Virus record (IMG/VR): IMGVR_UViG_3300010430_000005
Span: 19,467 to 83,466 of that record
From: a virus
Lineage: Duplodnaviria; Heunggongvirae; Uroviricota; Caudoviricetes
Length of the DNA stretch: 64,000 bases
Strand: one strand, 5' to 3'
Shown in pieces: positions 14,479-63,731 of the stretch; the stretch's first letter is position 1, and each line of letters starts with the position of its first letter. The notes under the pieces were generated by a model, which saw only the letters and a list, made by a program, of their open reading frames with translations, was not told the origin of the DNA and ran no database searches. The position numbers and the translations under genes are program-made.

Positions 14479-14744
14479 AGCCTTATACAGACGTTGCGCT
14501 ATGCGAAAATTCATGGATTAGGATATTCGACATAAACAATGCAAAAGAACAAGATTTTGTTTGGCACAGAGATAGTCGAGATAGAAAGATTAAAGTCATA
14601 TATGGCGCCAATTGGTATTTCCAATACGATGATTCTATGCCTATCAACATTACAGAAGGCGATGTTTTATATGTAGAGGCAATGGAGTATCACAGACTTA
14701 TTATGGGCGATACTACTTTGGCGTTATACATACAAGAACTATGA
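14472..14744 (+). CDS. hypothetical protein
   Basis: 90-aa ORF with a non-ATG start in the track. Confidence 0.3.
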   Translation: MVKPYTDVALCENSWIRIFDINNAKEQDFVWHRDSRDRKIKVIYGANWYFQYDDSMPINITEGDVLYVEAMEYHRLIMGDTTLALYIQEL

Positions 14745-20646: not shown

Positions 20647-21459
20647 ATGGAAGTCAAATGGGCAGTAAGCACTGGAGTTTTTGATAGACCAGGCTTTCTT
20701 AAAATAACAGACGCTCTTGATAGAGCAGGCATAGAGTATTTTCAGAGTGAATATGATACAGTATCTCGAAAATACAAAGACATACCATATGGCGTAGATG
20801 AATGTGTCGTCATGTATGGTCCTATCCAATTCGTTAAAAATAATGACAAAGGATTTTTGCCTGGTCCTTTTGGGTACGAAAACCCAAACACAACTCAATA
20901 TATGTCCAAATTGCCTATAGAATGGTTCTTTAATAGTGAATCTATCTATCTTCCGTTTGGGCAAATAATGTCTAAGATCGACTTTATAAATAAGGTGTAC
21001 GGTGACAGACTATTCATAAGACCAGATTCGGGGTTCAAAAGTTTCACCGGATTTAACGTCAACATCGAAGATTTAGAATTTGAATTATCCTCTAGGGCAC
21101 AGACAGAACCTGTTTTTTATGACGAATTGTGTCTTGTAGCTAAAGAAAAACAAATACTTGGAGAATATAGATTTGTCATTTGCGACAAAAAAGTCGTAAC
21201 TGGCTCCCAATATAGATATGACGGAGTGTTGGATATTCGTATTGACGTAAACAGCGATGCTCTGAAAATGGCAGAGAAAGTCGCTCAACACCCTTGGCAG
21301 ATGGATACATGTTACGTTGTAGATATATTTCTGGACGCTCTAGGTGCGCCTAGCATTGGAGAATTCAATAGTTTTTCGAGTAGTGGGCTTTATAGTTGCG
21401 ACGTGGATAAGATAGTAAAAGAAGTAAGTGCTTGTGCACTAAAAGAATGGGAATTTTGA
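20647..21459 (+). CDS. hypothetical protein, possibly ATP-grasp fold
   Basis: The C-terminal SIGEFNSFSSSG resembles the ATP-grasp E-x-N motif. Weak evidence. Confidence 0.35.
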   Translation: MEVKWAVSTGVFDRPGFLKITDALDRAGIEYFQSEYDTVSRKYKDIPYGVDECVVMYGPIQFVKNNDKGFLPGPFGYENPNTTQYMSKLPIEWFFNSESIYLPFGQIMSKIDFINKVYGDRLFIRPDSGFKSFTGFNVNIEDLEFELSSRAQTEPVFYDELCLVAKEKQILGEYRFVICDKKVVTGSQYRYDGVLDIRIDVNSDALKMAEKVAQHPWQMDTCYVVDIFLDALGAPSIGEFNSFSSSGLYSCDVDKIVKEVSACALKEWEF

Positions 21460-29152: not shown

Positions 29153-29776
29153 ATGATTGTCATGCAGGGTAAATTGCCGCGTAAAGTTAGTGTAGCATGT
29201 AGCGGGGGTGTCGATAGTATGGCCGTCGTCGACTTCCTAAAACGAAATCATAATGTGACTTTGTTGTTTTTTCATCACGGCACAGAAACCAGCGAAAAAG
29301 CATACCAATTCCTTAAATCGTATTCTTCAGCTAACGGCGTAGAATTAATATCAGAACGCATTAAAGATACTTCTGTTCCTAAAGATCAGAGTCAAGAGGA
29401 ATATTGGCGTAATTGTCGATATAAGTTTTTCCTTAACCGCGACGAGCCCGTTGTAACATGCCACCACCTTGACGATTGTGTCGAGACTTGGGTTTGGAGC
29501 TCTTTGAATGGAAACGGCAAGATCATTCCTTACAATAACCGTAACGTTATTAGGCCCTTTAGGGTCAATAAAAAGTCTGAATTTGTTTCTTGGGCCAAAC
29601 GAAATGATGTGCCGTGGGTAGAGGACGAGAGCAACAAAGATACAAAATATACTCGAAATTTTATTAGACACGAAATGATGCCAAAAGTTTTGACTGTTAA
29701 TCCCGGCATCCACAAAACTATTGCTAGAAAGGTGAGAAAAGATTATGGGAAATTATGTAGTAAAACCTCCTGTTGA
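29153..29776 (+). CDS. PP-loop (SGGxDS) ATP-pyrophosphatase family protein (TilS/QueC-like N-type ATPase)
   Basis: VACSGGVDSMAVVDFL PP-loop motif near the N-terminus. About 207 aa. Confidence 0.55.
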   Translation: MIVMQGKLPRKVSVACSGGVDSMAVVDFLKRNHNVTLLFFHHGTETSEKAYQFLKSYSSANGVELISERIKDTSVPKDQSQEEYWRNCRYKFFLNRDEPVVTCHHLDDCVETWVWSSLNGNGKIIPYNNRNVIRPFRVNKKSEFVSWAKRNDVPWVEDESNKDTKYTRNFIRHEMMPKVLTVNPGIHKTIARKVRKDYGKLCSKTSC

Positions 29777-33488: not shown

Positions 33489-33517
33489 TTGACATCACCG
33501 ACGTGATATACTATATT
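33489..33517 (+). promoter_or_regulatory. sigma70-like early promoter TTGACA-17-TATATT
   Basis: Perfect -35 at 33489-33494 and -10 TATATT at 33512-33517. Confidence 0.5.
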
Positions 33518-35959: not shown

Positions 35960-36429
35960 AGGATTCGTTTGGATATGTTATAAAGAGCACATTAAAAGGA
36001 GATTTAGACATGACTCGTGACGAATTCCAAAAAATAGTAGATGAAATAACTGGTGGGAAATATTACTCGCCAGAACGTAAGCGAAAAAACACAGGTATAC
36101 AAGGTCGTAAAGGTTATTACGGACCTACTATTGAACTAAAAGTAGAATGGATGACTGGTGGTGCTTGGGGTGGAAACTGTTGGGATGATTCGGACCCAAG
36201 TAGTTATTGCCCAGAACCTGACAAAGAACCAGAGTTAGAACACATAGATCAAATTTTGGAAAAGGTTGCCCCTACGATTGGGTTTATTCAATACAAGACT
36301 TTGATGCAAAAAGTTGAGTATGATACCAGAACTGAACTTGAATACTATGGAAACCATACCAGTTACGGTATCAAGAAAATTCTAATAGAAGATATTTGGG
36401 AATTTTTGCAGGAAAAGGGTTATGTATAG
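35956..36429 (+). CDS. hypothetical protein
   Basis: 157-aa ORF with ATGA overlap. Confidence 0.4.
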   Translation: MKDSFGYVIKSTLKGDLDMTRDEFQKIVDEITGGKYYSPERKRKNTGIQGRKGYYGPTIELKVEWMTGGAWGGNCWDDSDPSSYCPEPDKEPELEHIDQILEKVAPTIGFIQYKTLMQKVEYDTRTELEYYGNHTSYGIKKILIEDIWEFLQEKGYV

Positions 36430-36799
36430 TGACATAATATTGTGGGTTGGCCTACCTGGTTCGGGCAAAACCTACAATGCCCAAAAATACTGTGATATTG
36501 TCATTGATGATATCACTGACCTTTCGCAGTTACCATCCTCAGAAGAAATTAAAGGAAAGCGATTGGGTATCGCAGATGTAAACTTCTGCGACAAGAAAAT
36601 TCTTCACAAAGCAATATCAAAAATCTTGGAAATTTATCCAAGCGCAATGATTGACATATATTATTTTGAAAATGACGTCGACAAATGTCGTGCTAATGTG
36701 TTATATCGTAATGATGGTAGAAATGTAGAAGGAACCATTCTAAGATTTGAAAAAATATACGAACCGCCTAAGTGGGCGGCTAAAATATGGAGTGAATAA
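36422..36799 (+). CDS. P-loop kinase (polynucleotide 5'-kinase-like, stand-alone)
   Basis: Walker A VGLPGSGKTY at the N-terminus. 125 aa. Sits directly upstream of an RNA ligase. Confidence 0.45.
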   Translation: MYSDIILWVGLPGSGKTYNAQKYCDIVIDDITDLSQLPSSEEIKGKRLGIADVNFCDKKILHKAISKILEIYPSAMIDIYYFENDVDKCRANVLYRNDGRNVEGTILRFEKIYEPPKWAAKIWSE

Positions 36800-36800
36800 A

Positions 36801-37853
36801 ATGCTACTAACACGCGACGAATTCAGAAATAAAGTTTTTGAACGAGATAACCATCGTTGCGTGATATGTGGCGCAACTGAAAGTGATACTGTCAAACTTG
36901 ATGCACATCACATCATTGAACGCCGTTTGTGGTTGGATGGTGGCTATTATGTTGATAATGGGGCAACTCTTTGCGATAAAGGCGAAGATGGTTGTCACAT
37001 GAAAACAGAAATCACAACATTGTCAGTTGACGATATTCGCATTGCTGCCAACATTCAAAAACCTATCATACCAGAAGATATGTATGCAGACCACGTTTAT
37101 GACAAATGGGGTAATATCATATTGGGCAATGGAACCAGAACTAAGGGTCCGTTGTTTGGAGACGAATCTGTTCAAAAGGTTTTGTCGAAACATCCAAACT
37201 TTGAAAGTTTGTTTGTTGACTATGTGAAATATCCGAGAACTTATCACCTTCCATGGTCATTGGGTATTACGGATGATGATCGTATTATGCGTGATTTGTC
37301 TAATTTCGAAGGTAAGCGTGTTATTGTTACACGTAAAATGGATGGCGAAAATTTCACAGGATATAATGACTATAGTCATGCACGTTCTGTGGATGGACGC
37401 CACCATTATACCAGAGATTGGGCAAAGAATTTTTGGATGCAGCGTTCTTATGAATTGCCAAAAGGATGGCGTGTATGCGCTGAAAATCTCTATGCAGTCC
37501 ATTCAATTCGGTATGATGATCTTGACAGTTATCTTATGGGGTTTTCGATTTGGAATGATAAAAACGAATGCCTGTCTTGGGATGAAACAGTAGAATGGTT
37601 TCAACTTCTAGACATTCCTAGCGTTCCAGTCTTGTATGACGGTATCTTTGATGAAGAAAAGATCAAATCTCTTTATGATGTAAAGGAAGATTATGATAAT
37701 CATGAAGGGTATGTTATGCGAACTGCGGATGGGTTCAACTATGGAAATTTTAAAAATTGTGTTGCTAAATTCGTAAGACCAAATCACGTGCAATCGCAAA
37801 AGCACTGGTTTTATGGGAGAAGCGACCATGATGTAAATGGGATGAAAGAATGA
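36801..37853 (+). CDS. HNH-motif domain fused to Rnl2-like ATP-dependent RNA ligase
   Basis: RBS ggagtgaataaaATG. N-terminal HNH motif CVICG...LDAHHIIERRLW...NGATLC...CH. Nucleotidyltransferase motif I VTRKMDGENFTGY (compare Rnl2 KIHGTNF). Confidence 0.5.
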   Translation: MLLTRDEFRNKVFERDNHRCVICGATESDTVKLDAHHIIERRLWLDGGYYVDNGATLCDKGEDGCHMKTEITTLSVDDIRIAANIQKPIIPEDMYADHVYDKWGNIILGNGTRTKGPLFGDESVQKVLSKHPNFESLFVDYVKYPRTYHLPWSLGITDDDRIMRDLSNFEGKRVIVTRKMDGENFTGYNDYSHARSVDGRHHYTRDWAKNFWMQRSYELPKGWRVCAENLYAVHSIRYDDLDSYLMGFSIWNDKNECLSWDETVEWFQLLDIPSVPVLYDGIFDEEKIKSLYDVKEDYDNHEGYVMRTADGFNYGNFKNCVAKFVRPNHVQSQKHWFYGRSDHDVNGMKE

Positions 37854-38122
37854 GTATACATTTCAATTTCGACATAACAAATCCGTTTGTAAAAAAACAC
37901 TGCGGCAAAACCATTTTTTTCTTTGAACCAAAAGTATCTAAAAACAAGGCAATCTGCTTCCAGTTCGATGGATTTGATTGGAAGCAGATATTTGAAATTG
38001 GTTTTTGGTGGAGAGATAAAACTATGGGTCATTGGGGTATGAGTATAGAATTCGGACTTTTAGGGTTTTGGTTCAACTTAGACTTTTATGATATCAGACA
38101 TGTAGAGGAAGATGATGAATAG
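37850..38122 (+). CDS. hypothetical protein
   Basis: 90-aa ORF with ATGA overlap. Confidence 0.35.
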   Translation: MSIHFNFDITNPFVKKHCGKTIFFFEPKVSKNKAICFQFDGFDWKQIFEIGFWWRDKTMGHWGMSIEFGLLGFWFNLDFYDIRHVEEDDE

Positions 38123-38627
38123 AAAATATCTTGTATTTTTGGACATTGACGGTGTTTTTACATCGTCAAGAGTCCATTATGCACATAATGCAGAATATGG
38201 TATGTGGCATAGGTTTGATCCTGTTGCGGTCGATTTTTTGAATCGTATCCATGACACTTATCCTGTTGAATTTGTTCTAATGTCAACATGGAAAAATAAT
38301 ATAAAATATGATCATAAAATGATCGAACATTGGGTTCGTTCTGCATTTGCTAATAGTGGGTTTCGTGGAATGATTGCCAAACCATGGAAGGCTGATCCGG
38401 ACGATTTTGCGGTAATGAAGCGTTGGGATAGGGCACATGAAGTCAAAGATTATCTAGAAAACTTCGGAGAAGATGTAAAAGACTTCATCTTGTTTGATGA
38501 TAACGCATATCGTTTCAAGGAAATTCTTGGTAAAGGTAGACTTGTTAGAACCGATCCAGACAATGGATTGCTACATAAACATATGCTAAATGCTATGTCT
38601 ATCATGGGAACTTGGGTGGAGAAATGA
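38112..38627 (+). CDS. HAD-superfamily phosphatase (DxDG motif; Pnk-phosphatase-like)
   Basis: N-terminal LVFLDIDGVFTS matches HAD motif I DxDx(T/V). Motif IV-like FDDNAYR. Confidence 0.5.
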   Translation: MMNRKYLVFLDIDGVFTSSRVHYAHNAEYGMWHRFDPVAVDFLNRIHDTYPVEFVLMSTWKNNIKYDHKMIEHWVRSAFANSGFRGMIAKPWKADPDDFAVMKRWDRAHEVKDYLENFGEDVKDFILFDDNAYRFKEILGKGRLVRTDPDNGLLHKHMLNAMSIMGTWVEK

Positions 38628-39025: not shown

Positions 39026-39054
39026 TTGACAAGCACATATACATGTAGTATAGT
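39026..39054 (+). promoter_or_regulatory. sigma70 consensus promoter TTGACA-17-TATAGT driving the tRNA-like RNA
   Basis: -35 at 39026-39031 and -10 at 39049-39054. Predicted TSS around 39061, 7 nt before the acceptor-like stem. Confidence 0.6.
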
Positions 39055-39067
39055 GCTTAAATAGTTT

Positions 39068-39187
39068 CCCGCTGTGGTGTAACGGTTAGCACACGTGCAC
39101 AAAGTCAATCCTGCAAAGGATTGTTACAGCAACAAAATTGCATATCATTGGAAGATCGTGGTCTAGGTTCGATTCCTAGCGGCGGGA
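39068..39187 (+). ncRNA. tRNA-like non-coding RNA, ~120 nt, non-canonical (candidate Y RNA, or intron/insert-containing tRNA)
   Basis: Acceptor-like stem CCCGCTG/CGGCGGG (one G-U pair). D-arm GTGT-AACGGTTAGC-ACAC. Canonical T-arm CTAGG-TTCGATT-CCTAG. Discriminator A with no encoded CCA. About 67 nt lie between the D- and T-arms instead of about 22-40, containing the hairpin CAATCC-TGCAAA-GGATTG, so no standard anticodon arm could be drawn by hand. Confidence 0.5.
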
Positions 39188-39261
39188 CTGTTAATTGAAT
39201 ACCTAGGTTAGATTCGGCAGAGTCTAATTAAAACAAAACTAACCTGAAAGGAGAATATAAG

Positions 39262-40686
39262 ATGAACACTTTTTCTAACGCAGTTGCTAATATCAAATCA
39301 AAAGAAATCTCACGCACCGAAAACGGTATGAAAGCTTTTGCTACTTCCGATTCTAAAGTTCTTGACCTATTTGGTAAGATCGGTTCTGGTCGCGGTCGTG
39401 ATATGTCTCGCGAATTTATGGCAGCACTTGGTGAAGATCAAGAACTTGCGATTCGTGTTCTCCTATGGGCACGTGATGTTCGTGGTGGTGCGGGTGAACG
39501 CGAAACTTTCCGTTCGCTACTAAAGGCGCTAGAAAACGGCAATCCGACACTTGCTGGTAAAATCATGCACCTAATCCCGGTTCTGGGTCGTTGGGATGAT
39601 CTGTTCGTGTATGAGGATGCTATCAACCGTAAAGCAGCACTTCGCATGTATGCAGATGCTCTTACGGACGGAAATGGTCTAGCCGCAAAATGGGCACCGC
39701 GTGAAAAGTCAACCAAGAAAGAACGTGCAGCAATGCTACGCAAATTCATGGGTCTTTCACCTAAGGAATATCGTAAACTCCTAGTCTCGAATACGAATGT
39801 TGTGGAGACTCAAATGTGCGCGAAGGACTGGGGAGGTATCGACTTTTCGAAAGTTCCTTCTCTAGCGTCTGCACGTTATCAAAAGGCATTTGGTCGTAAT
39901 GCGAGCGAGCAATATGCAGCATACATTCGTGAACTCCAAAAGCCTCAGGCAGAGCGCAATCCGAAAGTTAAAATTAATGCTGGTGCAGTATACCCATATG
40001 ATATTGTGAAGTCTCTATCAAAAGGTAATGCTGCTGTTGCGGATGCACAATTCGAAGCACTCCCAAACTATGTAGGTGATTCTAAAATCCTACCAATGGT
40101 TGATGTTTCGGGTTCTATGTATACTCCACTTGCTGGAAATACCAATGCACTTGAAGTTGCTATCTCACTAGGTCTGTATCTTTCTGACCGCACCAGTTCT
40201 GATTTTAAGGACATGTTCCTTACTTTCTCTGGTGAGTCAAAGATCGAAACCCTAAAAGGTAGTCTGTCACAGAAGTATAACCAACTTCGTCGTGCGGAAT
40301 GGGGAATGAACACTAACCTACACTCTGCGTTTGAGGAAATTCTTCGAGTTGCAAAGGACGGCAATGTCTCGCAAGAGAACATGCCAGACACTGTTCTTAT
40401 CCTTAGTGATATGCAGTTTGATCGTTGCGTTCGTCACGATGACAATGCTCTTGGCATGATTAAACGCAAATATGCAGAAGCGGGATACACTATGCCTTCT
40501 GTTGTATTCTGGAACCTAACTGCACGTGCTGATAACACACCAGTTAAAACTAACGACAAAGGCGTTGCCCTTGTTTCGGGTTTTAGTCCAGCGATCATGG
40601 CAACGGTTCTTGGTGCGGATCCTACGGAATTTACACCATATGCAATGATGCTAAACACTATCATGAGCGACCGTTACAATTTTTAA
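39262..40686 (+). CDS. rsr: Ro60-like protein (TROVE domain + C-terminal vWA/MIDAS domain)
   Basis: RBS aaaggagaatataagATG. N-terminal TROVE-like region (LFGKIGSGRGRD...IRVLLWARDVRGGAGER...LIPVLGRWDDL). vWA MIDAS motif MVDVSGSM with a downstream Ser/Thr/Asp series. Same architecture as bacterial Rsr. Confidence 0.65.
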   Translation: MNTFSNAVANIKSKEISRTENGMKAFATSDSKVLDLFGKIGSGRGRDMSREFMAALGEDQELAIRVLLWARDVRGGAGERETFRSLLKALENGNPTLAGKIMHLIPVLGRWDDLFVYEDAINRKAALRMYADALTDGNGLAAKWAPREKSTKKERAAMLRKFMGLSPKEYRKLLVSNTNVVETQMCAKDWGGIDFSKVPSLASARYQKAFGRNASEQYAAYIRELQKPQAERNPKVKINAGAVYPYDIVKSLSKGNAAVADAQFEALPNYVGDSKILPMVDVSGSMYTPLAGNTNALEVAISLGLYLSDRTSSDFKDMFLTFSGESKIETLKGSLSQKYNQLRRAEWGMNTNLHSAFEEILRVAKDGNVSQENMPDTVLILSDMQFDRCVRHDDNALGMIKRKYAEAGYTMPSVVFWNLTARADNTPVKTNDKGVALVSGFSPAIMATVLGADPTEFTPYAMMLNTIMSDRYNF

Positions 40687-47321: not shown

Positions 47322-47357
47322 TTGTGTTTACAATATATGTAAATTAGTATATACTGG

Positions 47358-47386: not shown

Positions 47387-48553
47387 ATGGGAAGTGAAAT
47401 TCATCGCAAATTGGCATCTATTCAGCGAATTGAAGAAGTTCGGGACATTGAAGGCGCAGATCTAATCCAAGCATACCGCGTTCTAGGTTGGTGGGTAGTT
47501 GATAAACGTGCTGCACATAAAGTAGGCGATCTCGTAGTATACATTTCTATTGATTCATGGGTGCCACATGAACTTGCACCTTTCTTGTCCAGTGGAAAAG
47601 AACCCCGCGAATACAACGGTGTGAAAGGTGAACGTCTTCGCACAATCAAACTTCGTGGACAGGTTTCGCAAGGATTGCTCATCAAAATTTCAGATATTCC
47701 TATTCACGTATTTGCCACTGAGAATGTAGATACTGGTGAAGTATATGCAATGGATGAAATCGTTTGGAATGAAGGAGACGATCTTACTCTTGATCTAAAC
47801 ATCCAAAAGTGGGAAGCACCAATTCCTGCACAACTTCAAGGACAAGCAAAAGGCACATTCCCTACCAGTCTTATTCCTAAGACTGACCAGGAACGCATTC
47901 AAAACTGCTTTGGTGCTATCCAAAAGCGTGATGGTCTTTTCTTGACTGAAAAGTTTTGGAATGAGGAATTGCAAGAAGTCCAAGAGCGTGATGTTGTTCT
48001 TCCAGAAGATTTCAAGAAGCCTACTTATGAGGTTACCATGAAACTTGATGGTAGCAGTATGACCATTTTCCGTTGGGAAGATGAACTTCGTGTTTGTAGT
48101 CGCAACATGGAACTGAAAATTAACGAAGAAAATGCCGATAACACTTTTGTTAAAATGGCATTGAAACTTGATGATTGCATCCCAGAAGGACTTGCTTTCC
48201 AAGGCGAACTTTGCGGCGAAGGAATCCAAGGCAACCGTGAAGGGTTTAAGGGGCATCACTTCTTTGTGTTTGATGTTTTCGACATAAAAGAACACAAATA
48301 CCTTTCGCCTTCCGAACGGCATGATATCATAAAAGACATGAATTCCATCATGGGATTGCCGTTCATCGACCATGTTCCTGTTCTTGGAACAGACTGGAAT
48401 GCACCTGAGAGTGTTGCAAAGGGTCTTGAACTGGCAGAAGGCCCAAGCATTAATCACAAGGTTCGCGAAGGTCTTGTGTGGAAATGCAATGAAGACCCGA
48501 GTTTCAGTTTCAAAACGATCAGCAACAAATTCTTGCTCAAAGGTGGGAATTGA
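47387..48553 (+). CDS. ATP-dependent RNA ligase-like nucleotidyltransferase (KxDG family)
   Basis: Motif I EVTMKLDGSSMTIFRW (compare Rnl1 KEDGS). N-terminal extension precedes the NTase domain. 388 aa. Confidence 0.45.
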   Translation: MGSEIHRKLASIQRIEEVRDIEGADLIQAYRVLGWWVVDKRAAHKVGDLVVYISIDSWVPHELAPFLSSGKEPREYNGVKGERLRTIKLRGQVSQGLLIKISDIPIHVFATENVDTGEVYAMDEIVWNEGDDLTLDLNIQKWEAPIPAQLQGQAKGTFPTSLIPKTDQERIQNCFGAIQKRDGLFLTEKFWNEELQEVQERDVVLPEDFKKPTYEVTMKLDGSSMTIFRWEDELRVCSRNMELKINEENADNTFVKMALKLDDCIPEGLAFQGELCGEGIQGNREGFKGHHFFVFDVFDIKEHKYLSPSERHDIIKDMNSIMGLPFIDHVPVLGTDWNAPESVAKGLELAEGPSINHKVREGLVWKCNEDPSFSFKTISNKFLLKGGN

Positions 48554-49872: not shown

Positions 49873-50334
49873 ATGGAAATAGAGTACAGAAAAGGCGACC
49901 TGATGGATACAGATGCGCACGCTATCTTGCATGGTTGCAATGCTCAGGGTGTAATGGGGTCGGGAGTGGCTGCTTTGGTTCGAAAGAAATACCCCGAGGC
50001 ATATGAGGTATACCGAAAAACATATGAGATGACCGACCACTTCGTACCGGGCTTAATTATCCCTGCGGTGTGTGATTACGGCATTAACGTAAAAATTATC
50101 ATTAACGCGATAACCCAAGAATACTACGGTCGAGACGGAAAACGATATGTTAGTTATGACGGGGTGGCTGAATGCCTAAAAAAAGCAAATTCTTGGTTAT
50201 ATTCGCATAACGTGAATCGACTAGCAATGCCTCAGATAGGGGCTGGTTTAGGTGGCGGCGACTGGCGCGTGATTGAGGCCATTATTGAGAGCGAAATGAC
50301 CAACGTCAAACCAATTGTTTATGTGTATAGGTAA
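49873..50334 (+). CDS. macro-domain protein (ADP-ribose binding / de-ADP-ribosylating hydrolase fold)
   Basis: RBS taaggaggtgtcATG. Macro signatures GDLMDTDAHAILHGCNAQGVMGSGVAALV... and PQIGAGLGGGDW. Confidence 0.6.
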   Translation: MEIEYRKGDLMDTDAHAILHGCNAQGVMGSGVAALVRKKYPEAYEVYRKTYEMTDHFVPGLIIPAVCDYGINVKIIINAITQEYYGRDGKRYVSYDGVAECLKKANSWLYSHNVNRLAMPQIGAGLGGGDWRVIEAIIESEMTNVKPIVYVYR

Positions 50335-51291: not shown

Positions 51292-51513
51292 ATGTTGACT
51301 CAAGAAACTAAAAAACTGTTTGTTTCTTTCGCAAAAGATGCGCCGAACTGGAGCGGAACTCCTCTACTTGACATCACATCGGCCCAACGAGGCAATTTGT
51401 CCGACCTCAAGAAAAAGGGGCTGGTCGAAACATTTCGCGATGAAGGTTGCGATTGGGTTATCTTTACAAAGGCCGGTGAAGAGTTGGCGGCAGAATATGG
51501 TTATGAGGTGTGA
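51292..51513 (+). CDS. hypothetical protein
   Basis: RBS caaggagatacacgATG. Confidence 0.45.
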   Translation: MLTQETKKLFVSFAKDAPNWSGTPLLDITSAQRGNLSDLKKKGLVETFRDEGCDWVIFTKAGEELAAEYGYEV

Positions 51514-51514
51514 A

Positions 51515-51874
51515 ATGAATTATTTCTTGTTTATCGACGATGAACGAAACCCGGAAGATGTTACTTGGGCTCCACAGCGAGTCAAAGACCTATATAACAA
51601 TCGCAGTTGGGTTGTGTGTCGTAATCATTGCGATGTGATGAAAACAGTATCTAGCTTAGGTATGCCGACATTCGTTTCTTTCGATCACGACTTGGGCGAG
51701 GTCTCGAAAGACGGGTATTGGATTGCTAAAAAGTTAGTCGATACCGAGCTAAGTGGTCTGTTCAGTTTTCCTGGCGAGTTTGATTATTATGTCCACAGCA
51801 AGAACCCCATCGGCAAAGCAAATATCGAAATGTACCTTAATGGGTATATGACAACAAAATTAACAGTGACGTGA
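51515..51874 (+). CDS. hypothetical protein
   Basis: RBS gaggtgtgaaATG overlapping the previous stop. Confidence 0.4.
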   Translation: MNYFLFIDDERNPEDVTWAPQRVKDLYNNRSWVVCRNHCDVMKTVSSLGMPTFVSFDHDLGEVSKDGYWIAKKLVDTELSGLFSFPGEFDYYVHSKNPIGKANIEMYLNGYMTTKLTVT

Positions 51875-53868: not shown

Positions 53869-54510
53869 ATGAAATGGTCTAAAGTATATGAAACTGATTT
53901 GGGCATTTATGCCCAAAATCTTATTTCAGAAAACACAAAAAAATATGGTTTAGAATATCATAACATGGATCATATTGTTTCTATGTATGATTATCTGGAT
54001 AAAACAAATGAACCTTATGATGAAGCATTAGATTGGGCGGTTCTTTTTCATGACATTGTATATGATGATCAACCGAAAAAAGAATGGCGTTCTTCTCTCG
54101 AATTTTCCAAATCGTCAAAAGAATATTGTGGGTGTAGTTTAAGTCTTTATGATATTTCAAAAGTGTCTGGTCTTATCATGATGACAGAAAAACATTGTCT
54201 AGAAAGTAAAAATCTTGACAGGACATATTCAGCGATCATTCGTGCAGATTTGCATCAATTGGGTGATCGAGTGAAGGCATTCACCAATTATTATAAAATC
54301 ATGCAAGAAAGTATGAATTTGTATAATGTTGATGAAGTCGCTTTTGCACAAGCAAATCTTGACTTCATGAATGGTCTGTATCAAAGGGTTGGTGAAAACT
54401 ATTACAAATATGATAGGGACTATCAAGAATTTCACAAATCGGTTGGTGATGGTGTTTTGATGACAATTAATCTTTCTGAAACTCTTTTGGGGTTGACAAC
54501 TCACATGTGA
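53869..54510 (+). CDS. HD-domain phosphohydrolase-like protein
   Basis: H...HD pattern: EYHNMDHIVSMYDYL ... AVLFHDIVYD. Confidence 0.45.
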   Translation: MKWSKVYETDLGIYAQNLISENTKKYGLEYHNMDHIVSMYDYLDKTNEPYDEALDWAVLFHDIVYDDQPKKEWRSSLEFSKSSKEYCGCSLSLYDISKVSGLIMMTEKHCLESKNLDRTYSAIIRADLHQLGDRVKAFTNYYKIMQESMNLYNVDEVAFAQANLDFMNGLYQRVGENYYKYDRDYQEFHKSVGDGVLMTINLSETLLGLTTHM

Positions 54511-54550: not shown

Positions 54551-55057
54551 ATGAAAACTTGTTATGTTATGGTCGGGTTGCCTGCTTCCGGCAAATCTAC
54601 CTTTATCGAAGAGATGTGCAAAATGGATCCTAATGCTTATGTCTATAGCACAGACAACATCATCGAAGACGCAGCAAAACGGCTTGGGAAAACTTACGAT
54701 CAAGTATGGAAAAAACATATCAAAGGCGCGCAAGCCGAAGCAGATATTTGGTTGGATGAAGCAACCAAAAACGATTTGAATATCATTTGGGACCAAACCA
54801 ATCTTTCTGTTAAAAAACGGCGCGGTATTATTGATAAAATGGTTCGTAAGAACTATCAGATTGAATGCATCGCTTTTCGTATGCCAGAAAGTGTTGATGA
54901 TATTACGGAATGGAATCGTCGTCTGCATAGTCGCAAAGGTAAATCCATTCCAGATTTCGTCATCCAAAATATGGTCAAGACATATGTCGAACCTACTCTT
55001 GATGAAGGTTTTGATCGTGTGACGATTATGGATATTTATGGTAAGGTTGTCCAATGA
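54551..55057 (+). CDS. P-loop NTPase / nucleotide or polynucleotide kinase-like protein
   Basis: Walker A MVGLPASGKST. Size is typical of zeta-toxin/AAA_33-type kinases. Confidence 0.5.
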   Translation: MKTCYVMVGLPASGKSTFIEEMCKMDPNAYVYSTDNIIEDAAKRLGKTYDQVWKKHIKGAQAEADIWLDEATKNDLNIIWDQTNLSVKKRRGIIDKMVRKNYQIECIAFRMPESVDDITEWNRRLHSRKGKSIPDFVIQNMVKTYVEPTLDEGFDRVTIMDIYGKVVQ

Positions 55058-55308
55058 GAAAAATCACTTTGTATCAATATTGTGAATGGGATGGTGGCGA
55101 CCGTCATTTTCCTAAAGATATTTGTTTTGAAAGTAGAGAAGAAGCAAATTTGTTTCTTGGATCAAACAAATATGATCGTGTCGAAAAAAAGGTATTCACG
55201 GTTTTTGAAACTGCTGATGAATATGAGCAAAGCAAATCAGAAGAACTAAAAAAATCTGCATTGGCAAAATTGACCGATCTTGAAAAGAAAGCATTGGGTT
55301 TGATCTAA
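55054..55308 (+). CDS. hypothetical protein
   Basis: 84-aa ORF with ATGA overlap. Confidence 0.4.
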   Translation: MRKITLYQYCEWDGGDRHFPKDICFESREEANLFLGSNKYDRVEKKVFTVFETADEYEQSKSEELKKSALAKLTDLEKKALGLI

Positions 55309-55469
55309 TGAACCTAATAGAAAAGGGGCGCGAACTTGGATATACACCTGCCCAAGTTCGCGCCATGATAAATGAACAAAGACTTTATAACGAAGTCTTG
55401 GAATGCGAAACCGTAGAAGATATAAAAATATTGCTACTACATTGGATAGAAAAAGGAAAGATACGATGA
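55308..55469 (+). CDS. small hypothetical protein (53 aa)
   Basis: TAATG overlap start. Confidence 0.25.
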   Translation: MNLIEKGRELGYTPAQVRAMINEQRLYNEVLECETVEDIKILLLHWIEKGKIR

Positions 55470-55936
55470 AAGAGATTATGGATAAAATTGCAGTAACCAC
55501 TAAGGCAATTCAGGATGCAAAAGAGGCATATAGTGTTGCTTTGAAAGAAGCAGTAGATCCAACACTAGACCATATCGCAAAAAATTGTGGTGAACTTGAC
55601 GTTATTACAATCATTGGTTACACCCCAGGGTTTAATGACGGTGAACCTTGCACACATGGTTCTTATTGGGGTTTTGGGTGGGGTTTCCTTGCAGGTTATG
55701 GAATCGAAGATTACGTAGAAGATTATATCGAAGTCGATGACGAAGATTTGCTAGAAGAAAAAATGGATGAACTTCTCAACAAAAAAGTAACAGTTTCACA
55801 AGAAGTGGAAGATTTTGTCCGCGAAGTTCTTGATCCATACTTTGAAGAAAAGTTGGAAACCGACTATCGTGTTCATATTCTCTTTGAAAATGGAACTTAC
55901 AAAATCGAAGAACATGAATATGACTGCGGTTACTAA
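55466..55936 (+). CDS. acidic hypothetical protein
   Basis: ATGA overlap start. Glu/Asp-rich. Confidence 0.4.
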   Translation: MKEIMDKIAVTTKAIQDAKEAYSVALKEAVDPTLDHIAKNCGELDVITIIGYTPGFNDGEPCTHGSYWGFGWGFLAGYGIEDYVEDYIEVDDEDLLEEKMDELLNKKVTVSQEVEDFVREVLDPYFEEKLETDYRVHILFENGTYKIEEHEYDCGY

Positions 55937-56510
55937 AAAAGTGAAGTTCAATAGGGGGTTGAAATATACCCCCGTCGAACTCAATAAATTTGAATATCCA
56001 AAAGTGAATTGGAAGTATGCTTCTGCTAAGTGGGTTTTAGCACATGCAGAATCTACAAACGATACGCTTAGGGATATTATCCTTCAATGTCCTATCGAAG
56101 GAAATCACAAAAGAATTTTGCTTGATGTGAAGGTCCAGGATCTGGTTCCTTCAAAGACTTCATGTATTCCTGGTTGGCATCTTGACGGGCCCGAAAATCC
56201 TCTACATGATTCAAAACCAGAAATCCATCATTTGTATATTCACGAAGAAGGTGGAGAAACCGAATTTATTAAGGATGAATTTGACCTTAAAGTTAATGAT
56301 AAAATGACGCAAAAGCAAATCGTGGGTATGATTCCGGATGATGTTAATGTCACAAAATGCTCTGCTGGATATTTCACAACTTTCACTCGTTTTGACTTCC
56401 ATAGGGGAATTAATGTAAAGAAGCCAATGCGCAGATTGCTGGTTAGACTTACTGAAACTGATGTGATTTTGCCTCGCAATAAACCTTATCTCCATGCGGT
56501 TGGGACTTGA
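55914..56510 (+). CDS. hypothetical protein
   Basis: Start overlaps the upstream gene's end. Confidence 0.4.
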   Translation: MNMTAVTKKVKFNRGLKYTPVELNKFEYPKVNWKYASAKWVLAHAESTNDTLRDIILQCPIEGNHKRILLDVKVQDLVPSKTSCIPGWHLDGPENPLHDSKPEIHHLYIHEEGGETEFIKDEFDLKVNDKMTQKQIVGMIPDDVNVTKCSAGYFTTFTRFDFHRGINVKKPMRRLLVRLTETDVILPRNKPYLHAVGT

Positions 56511-56534
56511 CAATTAATATTTTTCGTGTAGTAT
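56507..56534 (+). promoter_or_regulatory. sigma70-like promoter TTGACA-16-TAGTAT
   Basis: -35 at 56507-56512 and -10 at 56529-56534. Confidence 0.45.
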
Positions 56535-56567
56535 ATGAATTACACGAATCGAAAAGGAAACTTTGTT

Positions 56568-57365
56568 ATGAAAAAAGACGAATTCGGCGATCGTATGAAG
56601 CACTATGAACGAGCATACACAGATGTTCGTATCCCAATTGATGTGCCTCTTTGTGTTCGTATCGACGGCAAAGGATTCAGTAAATTCACCAAAGGATTTG
56701 CGAAACCGTTTGATAAAGATTTGACCCAAGCAATGATCGATACCACAAAGCATTTGGTTAAAGAGACCAATGCAAGTGTCGGTCATACACAATCAGATGA
56801 AATTACACTAATCTGGTTCCGACGTAGCGAAAAGCAAAGCGAACACATCTTTGGCGGCAAAGTATCCAAAATCAATAGTATTCTTGCTAGTATGGCGTCA
56901 GCAGCGTTCAATCACTATATTGCTAAGTATTCCCCCGACGCTTATGCGGGCAAGGGATTGGCTTATTTTGATTGTCGCGCATGGTCTGTTCCGAGCGATA
57001 TTGAAGCAAGTAATGTTCTGCTTTGGCGCATTCAGGATGCTAAAAAGAATAGTATCTCCTGTCACTATCGTTGGACACTTGGACATAGCAGTATGCACGG
57101 ACTCAACGGTAAGCAGATGATGGATAAGCTGAAATCAAGTGGTAATGACTGGGAACAGTTGCCAGCAAAATATCGATATGGCGTTTGTGTTCGTCGCAAG
57201 AACCGTATGGTTGAACTAGATGGCGAAACTCTTGCAAAGATTCCAGTTGACAAGCAACCAGAAAATGCTATAGTAACGAGAAGTGAATATGTTGAAGAAC
57301 GAGCAGATGAGTTTGTTAAGCGCAATCTCAAAACTCGGGTAAAATATGTCAAAGGAGAAAAATAA
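56568..57365 (+). CDS. Thg1-like protein (tRNA-His guanylyltransferase family; 3'-5' nucleotide addition)
   Basis: RBS aaaggaaactttgttATG. VRIDGKGFSKFTKGF matches the Thg1 core (VRxDGRxFxxF). Size fits (about 265 aa). Confidence 0.55.
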   Translation: MKKDEFGDRMKHYERAYTDVRIPIDVPLCVRIDGKGFSKFTKGFAKPFDKDLTQAMIDTTKHLVKETNASVGHTQSDEITLIWFRRSEKQSEHIFGGKVSKINSILASMASAAFNHYIAKYSPDAYAGKGLAYFDCRAWSVPSDIEASNVLLWRIQDAKKNSISCHYRWTLGHSSMHGLNGKQMMDKLKSSGNDWEQLPAKYRYGVCVRRKNRMVELDGETLAKIPVDKQPENAIVTRSEYVEERADEFVKRNLKTRVKYVKGEK

Positions 57366-57757
57366 TGTCAGTAAAAGACAAACTTGATAGCATTCGTTGT
57401 CGTGTTCTTAATGGTGCTGCAATGGTAAACGAATACCGTGAACATTGGGGTGATGATTATTGCTTCAAAGAACTTGGTAACGCACTTTCAACTAAAGAAG
57501 GTTTTGGTTGGAGCAAAATTGATATTATTTCACAATCTGATCTGAAAACTATTGATAGACAAACTCTTTATACGTATGGGTTTGGTAATTGGGATGGCAA
57601 GTTGATCCTTATTCCGCTTTGGTTGGCGAATTTCATGGACCAAACCGAAAAAGTCATTTCCATTCTGGGCGATGTATCTACACTTGCAGATTGCGATAAA
57701 GATGTTCGCGGTGGTTGCCTTGCATTTGGGTTTCATTTGGGGGATGACAATGGTTGA
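57365..57757 (+). CDS. hypothetical protein
   Basis: 130-aa ORF with ATGA overlap. Confidence 0.4.
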   Translation: MSVKDKLDSIRCRVLNGAAMVNEYREHWGDDYCFKELGNALSTKEGFGWSKIDIISQSDLKTIDRQTLYTYGFGNWDGKLILIPLWLANFMDQTEKVISILGDVSTLADCDKDVRGGCLAFGFHLGDDNG

Positions 57758-58229
57758 AACCATTACGACTGTAAAATTCAAATCCAAAGATGGTAATGTT
57801 TACGACACTTTGGAAAAAGCAGAACTTGCGGATAAAGAATTTGATCGTAAGAACTCTTTTGATCCTGCTAAAGAAGTTGCAACATTTCAAAAGATGTGCG
57901 AAAACAACTTTTCCCGCATTCGAAAACGCATTGATGCCGGGAAAAAACAATTTCCGTCTTTCTGGATGACAGAGCAAAAATACGGTCAAGATTACTATAT
58001 GTGTAATAGTTTTGATGATATGGAAGAGATGGGTTGGTCTGCATTTATCATGTGGTATGACTACTATATGTGTGAAACTGATGAAACCGTCGCGGTCGCA
58101 AAATTGATCAAAGAAACCGAAAACAAAAAAGCAGCACTTGCATTCGTTCTTGATCGTTGCTCAGAAGGCTACGAATATGAGCGCATGGAACAAATTTACG
58201 TGAAAACATTTGGAGATAAAAATGTCTAA
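57746..58229 (+). CDS. hypothetical protein
   Basis: About 160-aa ORF. The track's alternative start is 57672. Confidence 0.4.
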
Positions 58230-58834: not shown

Positions 58835-59470
58835 ATGGAAATTATTATGGCAATCGTAAATTATTTCTCAGGAACATGGGGAATGGTCGAACTAGCAGGG
58901 ACTATCTTTAGTCTTATCTGCGTATATCTCGCAACAAAACACAATCAATGGACTTGGTTCTTTGGAGCATTGGGGGTCATTCTCTTTGGCGCTCTGTTTT
59001 ATCAGTTTAAGCTATATTCTGATGCTGGCCTACAAATTCTTTTCTTCTTGCCCATGCAAATTTGGGGATTTTATGTCTGGCGAAATATGTCAAAACAGGA
59101 GCACAACTCCTCAGTAACAAAGTCGTTTGTCTCGGACGGCATCAGTAAAGTTTTTTCGTGGGATATCGTTATTGTTGCTATTGCAGGACTAACCGCGATC
59201 AACGGGGCACTGATGATGAAATATACCGATGCGAGTTTTCCCTTTGCTGACGCTTTCACAACTTGGATGAGCGTGTTTGCACAAGTCCTCATGGTTAAAA
59301 AATATTGGGAGTCATGGGTATTGTGGGTCACTATGGATATTGTTGCAATTGGTATCTATTTTGCAAAAGGACTTTATGTAGTGTCATTTTTGTACGTTAT
59401 ATTCCTTATCCTTGCTACTATCGGCCTAATCAAATGGTATCGTGATTGGAAGAGTCAGCAAATTGTATAA
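58835..59470 (+). CDS. pnuC: PnuC-family nicotinamide riboside/NMN transporter
   Basis: RBS aaaggagtttttgcaATG. Multi-TM protein carrying the PnuC signature region QWTWFFGALGVILFGALFYQFKLYSDAGLQILFFLPMQIWGFYVWR. Confidence 0.65.
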   Translation: MEIIMAIVNYFSGTWGMVELAGTIFSLICVYLATKHNQWTWFFGALGVILFGALFYQFKLYSDAGLQILFFLPMQIWGFYVWRNMSKQEHNSSVTKSFVSDGISKVFSWDIVIVAIAGLTAINGALMMKYTDASFPFADAFTTWMSVFAQVLMVKKYWESWVLWVTMDIVAIGIYFAKGLYVVSFLYVIFLILATIGLIKWYRDWKSQQIV

Positions 59471-61604: not shown

Positions 61605-63731
61605 ATGAAATACCTTATTACAGGTCACGAAATGCTAGAAACTGCGCCCGACTTTAAACTGGTCGGGCGCAACAAGGACATGACACGACTAACGTCTGTG
61701 CTACTTCGCAACAAAGCGGCATCTGTTATCCTTGTCGGCCCTGGTGGTGTTGGTGTAACATCACTGATTATGGGTCTACAGTCCCTTAAAAACCAATCTG
61801 ATGTCCCCTTTGATATTGTCTCGAAGCGCATCTTTTGGTTGAAAACAGATGAACTCTTTTCGTCTGGTGATAATGAGCAGATTAATAAAGGGTTTGGGAA
61901 TGTGTCAAACATCCTGAAACGAACGCCTGATTCAATTCTCGTTATCGAAGATACTCGCGACTTCATTGAAGCATGTCGTAATCATGGTTCAATGCATTTT
62001 ATCAATTCTATCAATTCTATGGTAAAATCTGGTCATACACAAGTCATTCTTGAAACTCGTGACCCTGATATCGAAATGGTTTTGAATGCACACTCTGATA
62101 TGCGTCAATGCTACACTATTGTGGATATCAATGAACCGATTGGAGATGATCTTAAACTGATTGTCAACGAAACAACATCTTCGCTTTCGAAACACCATGA
62201 TATCATGGTGTCGGAGGGTGTGATTGAGACTGCCATTGAATTGACCAATAAGTATCGCACTCGTGATTCGAGTCTTAGTCGTGCCCAGCCAGAACGTAGC
62301 ACAAACTTGATTGACCGCGCTTTGTCTTCATATCGTCTAGAAGCACATAAACGCCACCCAGACGCTATCATGTTGCTTTCCGAAGGTGTTGACGAAAATG
62401 ATCCTCGCATTCGAGAACTCGACGCCGAATTCGAAAAGATGCAAGAGCGTATCAAATATCTGTTTAACATGCAACGCGAAGGCGAAACCGCCATCATCGA
62501 ACTTGAAGAACAAATCACTACAATCAAAGAACAAGAAAAAGAAAGCCCGAAAGAGGTCGTTGAAGAAAACATGAACAATCGCCGTATTCAAATGTTTTCT
62601 AATGTTGCGAGTGTTGGTGGGATCGAAAGCGCAGAAATTCGTGCTTTGCGTGATAAAATTCGTCAATTCGAAGAAGTTATCAAAACAAACAAAGCAGAAT
62701 TTGACACACTGACTTCTAGTATCAATGAAAAACTTTTGTTGACAAAGGACCATGTTCTTGCTGAATTTAGTCGCCTTTCTGGTATCCCGGCAAGTAAACT
62801 AAATGAGAACGAAAAAGAGAAACTTCGTAATCTTGAAGCAGTTTTGAATTCTCGCGTATTTGGTCAAGAAAATGTCATTAAAAAGATTTCAGATGCTATT
62901 AAAGTATCTCGGATTGGTCAACGTAATGGTGGGAAACCACAAGCATCTTTCCTTATCATGGGTCCGAGTGGCACGGGTAAGACAGAAGTTTGTAAAGCAC
63001 TGGCACATGCATTGAAAGATGATGAAGCGGCACTAACACGTTTTGATATGTCAGAATACATGGAAAAGCATAGTGTTGCAAAACTCATTGGTGCCCCTGC
63101 TGGTTATGAGGGTAGTGAACGTGGTGGTATTCTAACCAATGCTATGCGTCAAAATCCGCACCGCATCATTCTTTTTGATGAAATTGAAAAAGCAGACCCT
63201 GCTGTGTTTGACTTGTTCTTGCAAATTCTTTCAGATGGTCGCCTTACAGACAACCATGGTCGGACTGTTAATTTTTCGGAATCAATGGTCATCATGACTA
63301 CCAATATTGGGCAATCGTTTTTCCTTGACGAAACCCTATCGGACGAAGAATCCGAACGCCTTGCAAACATTGAATTGGACGAAATTTACCGACCAGAATT
63401 TTTGAACCGTTTTGCTGGTCGTCAAAATATTGTGTGTTTTAATCGTTTGGGTATTGACTCTATCGTCAAAATCGTTAAAAGAGAACTATCTGCATTGAAA
63501 AGTGCATATGCCAATAATGGAGTTGATATTCGTATCAGCGAACAAGACATTGTTAGTTTCTGCGAAGATCACTATGAAGCAAAGCATGGTGCCCGTGGTC
63601 TACAAGGTTATATTGTTGCCAATGTCGAACCATTGATCGTTAACATGATTCTTTCGTCTGACGTTGATGGTAAAGTTCTTGATCTTGAATACAACAAAGA
63701 AACCAAGAGTTTTGATACTGTAGTCACATAA
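61605..63731 (+). CDS. ClpB/ClpA-like AAA+ ATPase (intact second NBD, degenerate first)
   Basis: RBS taaggaaactataatATG. The second NBD has FLIMGPSGTGKTE (Walker A), ILFDEIEKA (Walker B), a sensor region and the ClpB-type KLIGAPAGYEGSE. The N-terminal module VILVGPGGVGVTSL lacks the Walker A lysine. Confidence 0.6.
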   Translation: MKYLITGHEMLETAPDFKLVGRNKDMTRLTSVLLRNKAASVILVGPGGVGVTSLIMGLQSLKNQSDVPFDIVSKRIFWLKTDELFSSGDNEQINKGFGNVSNILKRTPDSILVIEDTRDFIEACRNHGSMHFINSINSMVKSGHTQVILETRDPDIEMVLNAHSDMRQCYTIVDINEPIGDDLKLIVNETTSSLSKHHDIMVSEGVIETAIELTNKYRTRDSSLSRAQPERSTNLIDRALSSYRLEAHKRHPDAIMLLSEGVDENDPRIRELDAEFEKMQERIKYLFNMQREGETAIIELEEQITTIKEQEKESPKEVVEENMNNRRIQMFSNVASVGGIESAEIRALRDKIRQFEEVIKTNKAEFDTLTSSINEKLLLTKDHVLAEFSRLSGIPASKLNENEKEKLRNLEAVLNSRVFGQENVIKKISDAIKVSRIGQRNGGKPQASFLIMGPSGTGKTEVCKALAHALKDDEAALTRFDMSEYMEKHSVAKLIGAPAGYEGSERGGILTNAMRQNPHRIILFDEIEKADPAVFDLFLQILSDGRLTDNHGRTVNFSESMVIMTTNIGQSFFLDETLSDEESERLANIELDEIYRPEFLNRFAGRQNIVCFNRLGIDSIVKIVKRELSALKSAYANNGVDIRISEQDIVSFCEDHYEAKHGARGLQGYIVANVEPLIVNMILSSDVDGKVLDLEYNKETKSFDTVVT

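Follow-up and report, generated by a model that had tools for sequence, protein, structure and literature searches.

Very few enzymes polymerize nucleic acid in the 3'-to-5' direction, and bacterial-type Thg1-like proteins (TLPs) belong to them. The gene described here is predicted to encode such a protein and lies in a stretch of phage DNA of 64,000 nucleotides (nt), called the window below, to which all positions refer unless a contig is named. The TLP of Bacillus thuringiensis (BtTLP; PDB 4KGK and 4KGM) uses 5'-monophosphate ends and ATP and extends 5'-truncated tRNA-His and tRNA-Phe by Watson–Crick-templated nucleotides, acting on truncated tRNA 5- to 160-fold better than in N-1 addition (PMC3061083). 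It also adds a templated guanosine at position -1 (G-1) opposite C73 and accumulates activated App- and Gpp-tRNA intermediates, and identifying the natural substrates of TLPs was called 'an important future goal' (PMC3061083). Anantharaman, Iyer and Aravind (2010; PMC2904730) reported bacterial Thg1 genes in the neighbourhood of genes for a polynucleotide kinase (PNK), a Macro domain and an RNA ligase, and phage Thg1 has already been proposed to act in anti-defence RNA repair (PMC2904730; PMC7824862). Iyer et al. (2021) regarded jumbo-phage Thg1 as an RNA-repair enzyme that restores 5' nucleotides and is 'only sporadically present' (PMC7824862). A phage TLP with repair partners is not new, as such genes are already annotated and their function has been predicted. 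No experimental work on a phage TLP turned up in a literature search.

In a tblastn search with the window TLP, 164 of 50,697 phage records had a homologue, none of them reaching 60% identity. The hosts include Bacillus, Prevotella, Caulobacter, Mycobacterium and Brevundimonas, many of the phages are jumbo phages, and most of the records listed annotate the gene as tRNA-His guanylyltransferase. The enzymes of PHROG 4717, from phages 201phi2-1 (Pseudomonas), GAP32 (Cronobacter), CBB (Pectobacterium), Bc431v3, Goe8 and FADO (all Bacillus) and from Brevundimonas jumbo phages, belong to the same family with identities of 35–45%. For Thg1 of 201phi2-1 and other jumbo phages RNA repair or restoration of tRNA 5' ends was likewise predicted (PMC2904730; PMC7824862). 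The window phage differs from these phages in being an uncultured marine T4-like myovirus and in having an HD-kinase gene pair linked to the TLP gene.

Identity and predicted active site of the TLP

The open reading frame (ORF) of the TLP has 265 codons on the + strand, from an ATG at 56568 to a TAA at 57363–57365. A sequence-only reading of the window had placed the product in the Thg1 family by its core VRIDGKGFSKF (residues 30–40, nt 56655–56687) and had named the catalytic carboxylates as the residues to be checked. The family assignment was borne out by all profile searches. The protein matched the Pfam Thg1 family PF04446 over profile positions 2–130 of 130 (106.9 bits, E = 9.6e-31, curated cutoff 29.2 bits), PHROG 4717 'tRNA-His guanylyltransferase' (E = 3.5e-75) and, over residues 4–244, the BtTLP chain 4KGK (153 bits, E = 6.4e-44). 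Eukaryotic Thg1 and archaeal TLP chains were matched with E-values of 1e-8 to 1e-6, the Thg1 chains at 30–37 bits. An AlphaFold2 (AF2) model built on 23 homologues reached a predicted local distance difference test (pLDDT) score of 89.3 and a predicted template modelling (pTM) score of 0.88. When this model was searched against the PDB with Foldseek, the best 32 matches were all Thg1 or TLP structures (E from 3e-18 to 5e-11), with BtTLP first, and the weak matches from rank 33 on were GGDEF proteins and cyclases, which are relatives of the palm domain. The ORF almost certainly encodes an enzyme of the Thg1/TLP class.

An in-frame ATG at 56535 was considered as start codon and rejected; it lies directly 3' of the -10 hexamer of a promoter-like site. 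The ATG at 56568 is preferred because it fits the N-termini of 22 homologues, which begin at the MKK position, and because an identical TLP was called independently as 265 amino acids (aa) on four metagenome contigs. The Shine-Dalgarno-like AAGGA (56554–56558) stands 9 nt 5' of this ATG.

Active-site residues were mapped with the alignment between the TLP and 4KGK and the residue roles for BtTLP and for human and yeast Thg1 (PMC3701042), and conservation was read from an alignment of 23 sequences with identities down to 51%. The conserved carboxylates are D29, D76 and E77 in human THG1 (hTHG1) and D30, D75 and E76 in BtTLP (PMC3701042). Both metal-binding carboxylates named in advance are present in the window TLP as D33 and D77, and so is the third carboxylate as E78. 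The residues of the activation step were found as K46, S76 and N161 (K44, S75 and N161 in yeast ScThg1) and those of nucleotidyl transfer as R31, K101 and R137 (ScThg1 R27, K96 and R133), while E14 and R154 take the places of BtTLP E12 and R147; R28 and R131 of BtTLP were also part of the mapping. Each of these residues is invariant in the alignment, in which about 60 positions are invariant altogether. The alignment and the model show the full two-metal site and the 5'-end activation and nucleotidyl-transfer residues of BtTLP, and the TLP is predicted to be catalytically intact.

The HINNLYN motif of eukaryotic Thg1 was not found in the TLP. The aligned segment reads D(T/C)HINNLYN in the yeast and Candida Thg1 chains, DASKNSIS in BtTLP and QDAKKNSIS in the window protein. 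Because QDAKKNSIS replaces HINNLYN, as in BtTLP, we classify the gene product as a bacterial-type TLP and not as a G-1-adding Thg1. With eukaryotic Thg1 (human 3OTB, yeast 5XOX, Candida 3WBZ) it has the superfamily, the fold and the two-metal chemistry in common, but the similarity is low (E around 1e-8, 20–25% identity), HINNLYN, which serves anticodon recognition, is lacking, and the TLP is expected to be template-dependent and not a non-templated G-1 adder. With BtTLP it shares about 40% identity over residues 4–244, the fold and the catalytic residues, and both proteins lack HINNLYN. It differs from BtTLP in being phage-encoded, in a C-terminus that is about 20 residues longer and in having C165 where BtTLP has the purine-stacking M158.

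The putative kinase partner and the TLP neighbourhood

A gene for a small P-loop kinase is located 1.5 kb 5' of the TLP gene on the same strand (Table 1). The product matched Pfam AAA_33 (E = 7.7e-16) and PHROG 505 'polynucleotide kinase' and, weakly, PNK-3'Pase, PSTK and T4 Pnk. It has in common with bacterial kinases encoded next to TLP genes a Walker A motif (G9..G14-K15-S16), D81-x-T83-N84 (DxTN) and R124..R128 (RxxxR), a motif set that we take to be of the PNK family type. The phage kinases carry an insert of about 26 residues with an STD motif, unlike the bacterial TLP-adjacent kinases; STD33 of the window kinase, read by eye, is presumably the counterpart of the SSD motif in Clostridium thermocellum Pnk.

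A single-pass phmmer search started from the window kinase alone matched kinases of about 145–170 aa that abut bacterial TLP genes (E = 1e-9 to 1e-6). Iteration extended the kinase family to 56 of 80 bacterial TLP loci, in every case on the strand of the TLP gene. This sample is dominated by Paenibacillaceae and holds far fewer than 56 independent associations, which counts against the function proposed below. In most of the 56 loci the two genes are 0–10 nt apart or overlap briefly. The kinase gene lies 3' of the TLP gene in Paenibacillaceae and 5' of it in Planctomycetota, Lentisphaerota, Myxococcota and Verrucomicrobiota. Because of the direct phmmer homology and the common motifs, we assign the window kinase to the TLP-associated kinase family of the 2010 analysis (PMC2904730). 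BtTLP likewise has a small PNK-family kinase encoded nearby, but the phage kinase gene is 1.5 kb away instead of abutting and its product has the insert described above.

Table 1. Features of the window that bear on the TLP gene, its expression and its possible partners.
Feature	Position	Strand	Basis
Thg1-like protein (TLP), 265 aa, predicted template-dependent 3'-5' RNA nucleotidyltransferase	56568..57365	+	family, residues, fold
Shine-Dalgarno-like AAGGA	56554..56558	+	direct reading of sequence
PNK-family P-loop kinase, 168 aa, predicted TLP partner making the 5'-phosphate end	54551..55057	+	AAA_33, PHROG 505
HD-superfamily phosphohydrolase-like protein, 212 aa, candidate 3'-end healing enzyme	53872..54510	+	PHROG 19425, invariant H/D residues
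ATP-dependent RNA ligase with N-terminal OB domain, DRB0094-like	47387..48553	+	PF09414, PF21189, PHROG 968; TIGR02306 E = 1.5e-37, below cutoff
HNH domain fused to RNA ligase	36747..37853	+	PF09414 E = 2.4e-26; PHROG 24030 'RNA ligase' E = 1.5e-136; HNH PHROGs at residues 20–90
HAD_SAK_2 protein ('Swiss Army Knife' RNA-repair HAD phosphatase type)	38112..38627	+	PF18143 E = 2.8e-19
cRec (cyclic-phosphate processing receiver) domain protein	51320..51874	+	PF20274 E = 1.8e-17
Macro domain protein, most similar to DarG	49873..50334	+	PF01661; NF048014 DarG E = 5.7e-21, below cutoff
DUF2828/DUF7788 protein, 'RNA-binding' in PHROGs	39262..40686	+	PHROG annotation
Sigma70-type promoter-like site, TTGACA-16 nt-TAGTAT	56507..56534	+	10/12 match; overlaps stop codon of upstream ORF
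Small conserved ORF, 53 aa, directly 5' of TLP in relatives	55308..55469	+	L001, L002-L004, L008, L011, L012
130-aa ORF, ATG overlaps TLP stop (TAATG)	57365..57757	+	PHROG 6726
PnuC-like transporter of nicotinamide mononucleotide (NMN) or nicotinamide riboside	58835..59470	+	PF04973 E = 2e-48

The product of the HD gene matched PHROG 19425 'phosphohydrolase' (E = 1e-6), and the Joint Genome Institute (JGI) gives its homologues the name 'predicted metal-dependent HD superfamily phosphohydrolase'. Residues H30, H60-D61, H108, D126 and H128 are invariant. The AF2 model is all-alpha with a pLDDT of 95.9, and its Foldseek matches are weak (E 0.1–1) and mostly of the HD fold, with cyclic-nucleotide phosphodiesterases, YpgQ and a small alarmone hydrolase among them. 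Sequence and profile searches gave no match in Pfam, NCBIfam or the PDB. Support for the HD assignment is moderate, and we infer that this protein could act as the phosphatase of a repair set.

The window has 40% G+C, is about 95% coding and has all plausible genes on the + strand. A megablast search of positions 56000–58000 against phage genomes gave no match and no close cultured relative. The gp41-type helicase is 49–53% identical to those of T4-like cyanophages and Methylophilales phage Melnitz (53% to cyanophage S-SM2), and TLPs with 84–92% identity were found on contigs of 79–318 kb. A JGI contig of 150,280 bp encodes proteins that are 100% identical to proteins of the window. From these relationships we classify the phage as an uncultured aquatic T4-like myovirus.

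In the related loci L001-L015, L087 and L088 (L-numbers label TLP-bearing or related loci and contigs), with TLPs that are 52–92% identical, the kinase gene and/or the HD gene lies 0.3–3.6 kb 5' of the TLP gene. The genes in between vary by locus, and the HD gene was found near TLP in nine related loci. In L087 and L088 the AAA_33 kinase gene comes first, followed by R2K ATP-grasp, Metallophos and the HD homologue; one or two small ORFs then precede TLP, and NMNAT-Nudix and NAMPT genes lie further 3'. L002 encodes 5' of the TLP a T4-type Rnl1 (PF09511), seen in this locus alone, as well as DUF2828 and a weak match to the Acb1 family (PF23474). The HD-kinase pair was not seen within 6 kb of TLP in DSS3_MAL1, FADO and GAP32, where the genes are mostly annotated as 'hypothetical protein'. 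A universal phage 'TLP operon' was considered and rejected: iterative searches with the HD, ligase, Macro, HAD and DUF2828 proteins placed their genes near TLP in the close lineage only. New here are the homology of the window kinase to bacterial kinases that abut TLP genes and the apparently lineage-specific HD-kinase-TLP linkage, which add modestly to what was known.

The gene set can also be compared with Pnkp and Rnl1 of T4, which counter the PrrC anticodon nuclease. The logic of 5' kinase, 3' phosphoesterase and RNA ligase is the same, and so is the T4-like lineage. The functions are on separate genes in the window, with a stand-alone kinase instead of a bifunctional enzyme. The putative phosphoesterases are of the HD, HAD_SAK_2 and cRec types and not of the DxDxT type, and the ligases are PF09414 proteins with OB or HNH additions. 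Moreover, the window adds a predicted 3'-5' polymerase, which could replace lost nucleotides and not merely rejoin ends.

Among distant viral loci, tRNA genes were found within 10 kb of TLP in 13 of 78, and the TLP gene lies within a tRNA array in L022, L028/L033, L037 and L057. L028 carries a tRNA-His with G-1:C73 at 9617–9689, 312 nt 5' of TLP (L028/L033), and in L037 the tRNA-His at 14548–14618, 4 kb from TLP, has A73 as discriminator and its gene encodes the G at -1. L070 encodes a transfer-messenger RNA at 8163–8529, 1.5 kb 5' of TLP.

Proposed function and alternatives

By analogy with BtTLP, the following route can be proposed. In an RNA, most likely a tRNA, the 5' strand of the acceptor stem would be shortened, leaving a 5'-OH. 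The kinase (54551–55057) would place a phosphate on the 5'-OH end left by the nuclease, and the TLP would activate this 5'-phosphate with ATP or GTP and restore the missing nucleotides 3'-to-5', templated by the 3' strand of the stem. The HD, HAD and cRec proteins and the two RNA ligases would handle 3' ends, loop breaks and other kinds of RNA break, so that the whole set may shield translation during infection from host nucleases that target tRNA. Defence systems that cleave tRNA are numerous (preprint 10.64898/2026.07.10.737580). We lean towards tRNA 5'-end repair as the biological role, with the balance only somewhat in its favour, because BtTLP prefers templated repair, the kinase family abuts TLP genes and the linkage with the kinase and HD genes is kept in relatives. 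The other repair-type genes in the one-strand gene block, the tRNA genes near TLP in distant viral loci and the promoter architecture described below agree with it as well.

Besides the sampling of the bacterial loci, several points weigh against this role. Its main weakness is that no host or defence nuclease that trims tRNA 5' ends is known, and our literature search found none; recent papers list defence systems that cleave within the anticodon or T loop or that modify the 3' end. Four ORFs and 1.5 kb separate the kinase and TLP genes in the window, the kinase gene is within 10 kb of TLP in 12 of 86 viral loci, and most distant phages lack a homologue of the kinase, the ligases or the HD protein within that distance. 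The HD protein has no close characterized relative in sequence and Foldseek searches, and the Macro domain protein might work in DNA de-ADP-ribosylation and not in RNA repair. Finally, ARAGORN detected no tRNA gene in the 64-kb window, and none was found in L178 or in the flanks of L001-L015. More specifically, the HD protein, the PNK-family kinase and the TLP could form a dedicated pathway that rebuilds acceptor-stem 5' ends against an undiscovered host nuclease that trims or clips them. This idea is tentative and we would not expect it to hold, but if true it would provide the first in vivo role for bacterial-type TLPs.

The absence of tRNA genes from the window, L178 and the flanks of L001-L015 also speaks against the classical task of Thg1, in which the TLP would mature phage or host tRNA-His by G-1 addition. 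The family was originally defined by this activity, the common phage annotation is 'tRNA-His guanylyltransferase', and BtTLP does add G-1 when it is templated by C73. TLP is also close to tRNA-His in some distant loci (312 nt in L028/L033; 4 kb from the A73 gene in L037), but both phage tRNA-His genes inspected, in L037 and L028, already encode the G at -1. A kinase partner would have no role in such maturation, as the product of RNase P already has a 5'-phosphate. With the lack of HINNLYN and the 5- to 160-fold preference of BtTLP for truncated tRNAs over addition at -1, it seems improbable that the TLP has this function.

We give a still smaller chance to the possibility that the TLP acts on a non-tRNA or tRNA-like RNA, for example the element at 39068–39187 described below, or mainly produces 5'-adenylylated or cap-like ends for RNA ligases. 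Ligation via a 5'-App intermediate was raised in the 2010 analysis (PMC2904730) and would agree with the App- and Gpp-tRNA that BtTLP accumulates, yet the invariant R31, K101 and R137 indicate that the TLP is more than an adenylyltransferase. As to the tRNA-like RNA, an archaeal TLP is reported to read the acceptor stem and elbow and not the anticodon (PMC4820378). The element retains acceptor-stem and elbow parts, and DUF2828 is encoded 5–7 kb from TLP in L001 and L002. Against this, the element and the TLP gene are 17 kb apart in the window with no direct link between them, and L013 has a TLP gene but not the element on its contig. It is very unlikely that the TLP gene came by horizontal transfer as a passenger that plays no part in infection, or that the protein makes signalling nucleotides like its GGDEF and Cas10 palm relatives. 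TLPs are indeed sporadic in phages (the 164 records above), and the palm domain is related to GGDEF proteins and cyclases, as the weak Foldseek matches reflect. However, the strong structural matches are all Thg1 or TLP, the invariant positions include every catalytic residue, and the gene stays beside the same partners across diverged relatives.

Promoter-like site and other genes of the window

The sequence-only reading had given the TLP gene a sigma70-type promoter of its own. A promoter-like site is present exactly there, with TTGACA at 56507–56512, a spacer of 16 nt and TAGTAT at 56529–56534, so that the -10 hexamer ends 34 nt before the ATG. Promoter-type matches as a class are at chance level between 53 and 60 kb (25 observed, 21.9 expected). 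Over the whole window, sites with at least 10 of 12 matching positions number 23 on the + strand and 16 on the - strand, against 14.8 ± 3.8 in shuffled sequences. Six + strand sites, with first hexamers at 33489, 40969, 45413, 47327, 56507 and 58581, end 29–34 nt 5' of a start codon (P about 1e-4 in a rough binomial estimate). Five of these have a perfect TTGACA and the one at 47327 has TTTACA, and the architecture recurs with a spacer of 16–17 nt and a -10 of the TAnnnT type, concentrated in the block of small genes at 33–59 kb. This regular spacing between promoter and start codon suggests that they are real early promoters of the phage. The site at 56507–56534 is a plausible promoter, from which the TLP gene is probably transcribed early. 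It appears to be specific to the lineage, as it is not conserved in L002, whose TLP is 92% identical. There the conserved 53-aa ORF runs directly into TLP, its stop codon overlapping the TLP ATG; in the window two additional ORFs (55403–56510) stand between this ORF and TLP. The 130-aa ORF was also found next to TLP in L001 and in the identical contigs L179-L181.

The combination of kinase, phosphatase and ligase recognized in the sequence-only reading is present, as the PNK-family kinase, the HD and HAD_SAK_2 proteins and the two RNA ligases. The same reading saw in it a comprehensive tRNA repair toolkit. The repair-type genes are there and may act together in this way, but they are spread over about 20 kb among many small ORFs in a one-strand gene block, and the Macro protein is most like the antitoxin DarG, a DNA ADP-ribosyl glycohydrolase. 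The toolkit is gene content and not an operon. A possible second heal-and-seal cassette lies at 36422–38627, with a small Walker-A-like ORF (36422–36799), the HNH-RNA ligase and the HAD_SAK_2 protein. The small ORF had no family match, and neither this ORF nor the HAD_SAK_2 protein had a sequence match in the PDB.

The tRNA-like element (39068–39187, +) lies between a promoter-like TTGACA-17-TATAGT (39026–39054) and the DUF2828/DUF7788 gene, with a hairpin downstream of it at 39206–39228. It scored 39.6 bits against the Rfam tRNA model in a local scan (gathering score 29). Intact acceptor, D and T arms are combined with a 61-nt insert, containing a hairpin, in place of the anticodon arm. ARAGORN and a whole-window Rfam scan with gathering thresholds missed it, the Rfam scan finding nothing at all. 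A pattern scan from D arm to T arm was discarded, as its matches were false positives formed by pairs of neighbouring ordinary tRNA genes. The element was also found 5' of DUF2828 homologues (78–89% identity) on four other contigs among L182-L186, where an E-value-based Rfam scan of these contigs had missed it and alignment later showed it. RNAalifold with the five sequences supported the acceptor, D and T arms, the inner hairpin and the downstream hairpin, with compensatory double changes in 13 of 37 pairs. The tRNA-like module is missing from other relatives, which retain the promoter and the downstream hairpin, and it was not found 5' of DUF2828 in L001 or L002. Ro (ROT/TROVE) RNA-binding proteins with tRNA-like RNA partners are listed among the repair systems of jumbo phages (PMC7824862). 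The element is possibly the Y-RNA-like partner of a Ro/TROVE-like protein, if DUF2828 belongs to that group, as we infer. In the relatives L182-L186 a TilS-type gene lies directly 5' of the tRNA-like RNA and DUF2828, and L182 and L183 have downstream an ORF of 233–238 aa that resembles the core of class-II aminoacyl-tRNA synthetases (tRNA-synt_2b). The window itself encodes at 29153–29776 (+) a 207-aa protein that consists of the N-terminal PP-loop domain of TilS alone (TIGR02432, 113 bits, cutoff 93.6).

Genes related to nicotinamide adenine dinucleotide (NAD) recur near TLP. PnuC was also found near it in L001, L002, L008 and L013, NMNAT-Nudix or NAMPT in L087, L088, L178 (at 14052–15110 of L178) and the unrelated Bacillus phage FADO, and NAD-related genes in L006. 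An R2K-clade ATP-grasp protein, of the type encoded between kinase and TLP in L087 and L088, is found in the window at 20647–21459 (+). Furthermore, the window encodes a RecA/UvsX-like recombinase (3741–5186, +) with an apparent intein-like insert (CLDGSTEII...VSHN, by eye from the translation), a 575-aa protein (8993–10720, +) with a RelA/SpoT-type HD_4 domain in its middle part (PF13328, E = 7.7e-17) that is a possible (p)ppGpp hydrolase, and a ClpB-like AAA+ protein (61605–63731, +; AAA_2 E = 6e-54, ClpB_D2-small).

Cultured phages with a TLP gene exist, for example GAP32, CBB and FADO, which grows on B. subtilis BEST7003. Lytic phages keep an apparently intact TLP together with a kinase partner, phosphoesterases and RNA ligases, and this strengthens the view that the natural role of the family may be to repair RNA damaged in conflict between phage and host.

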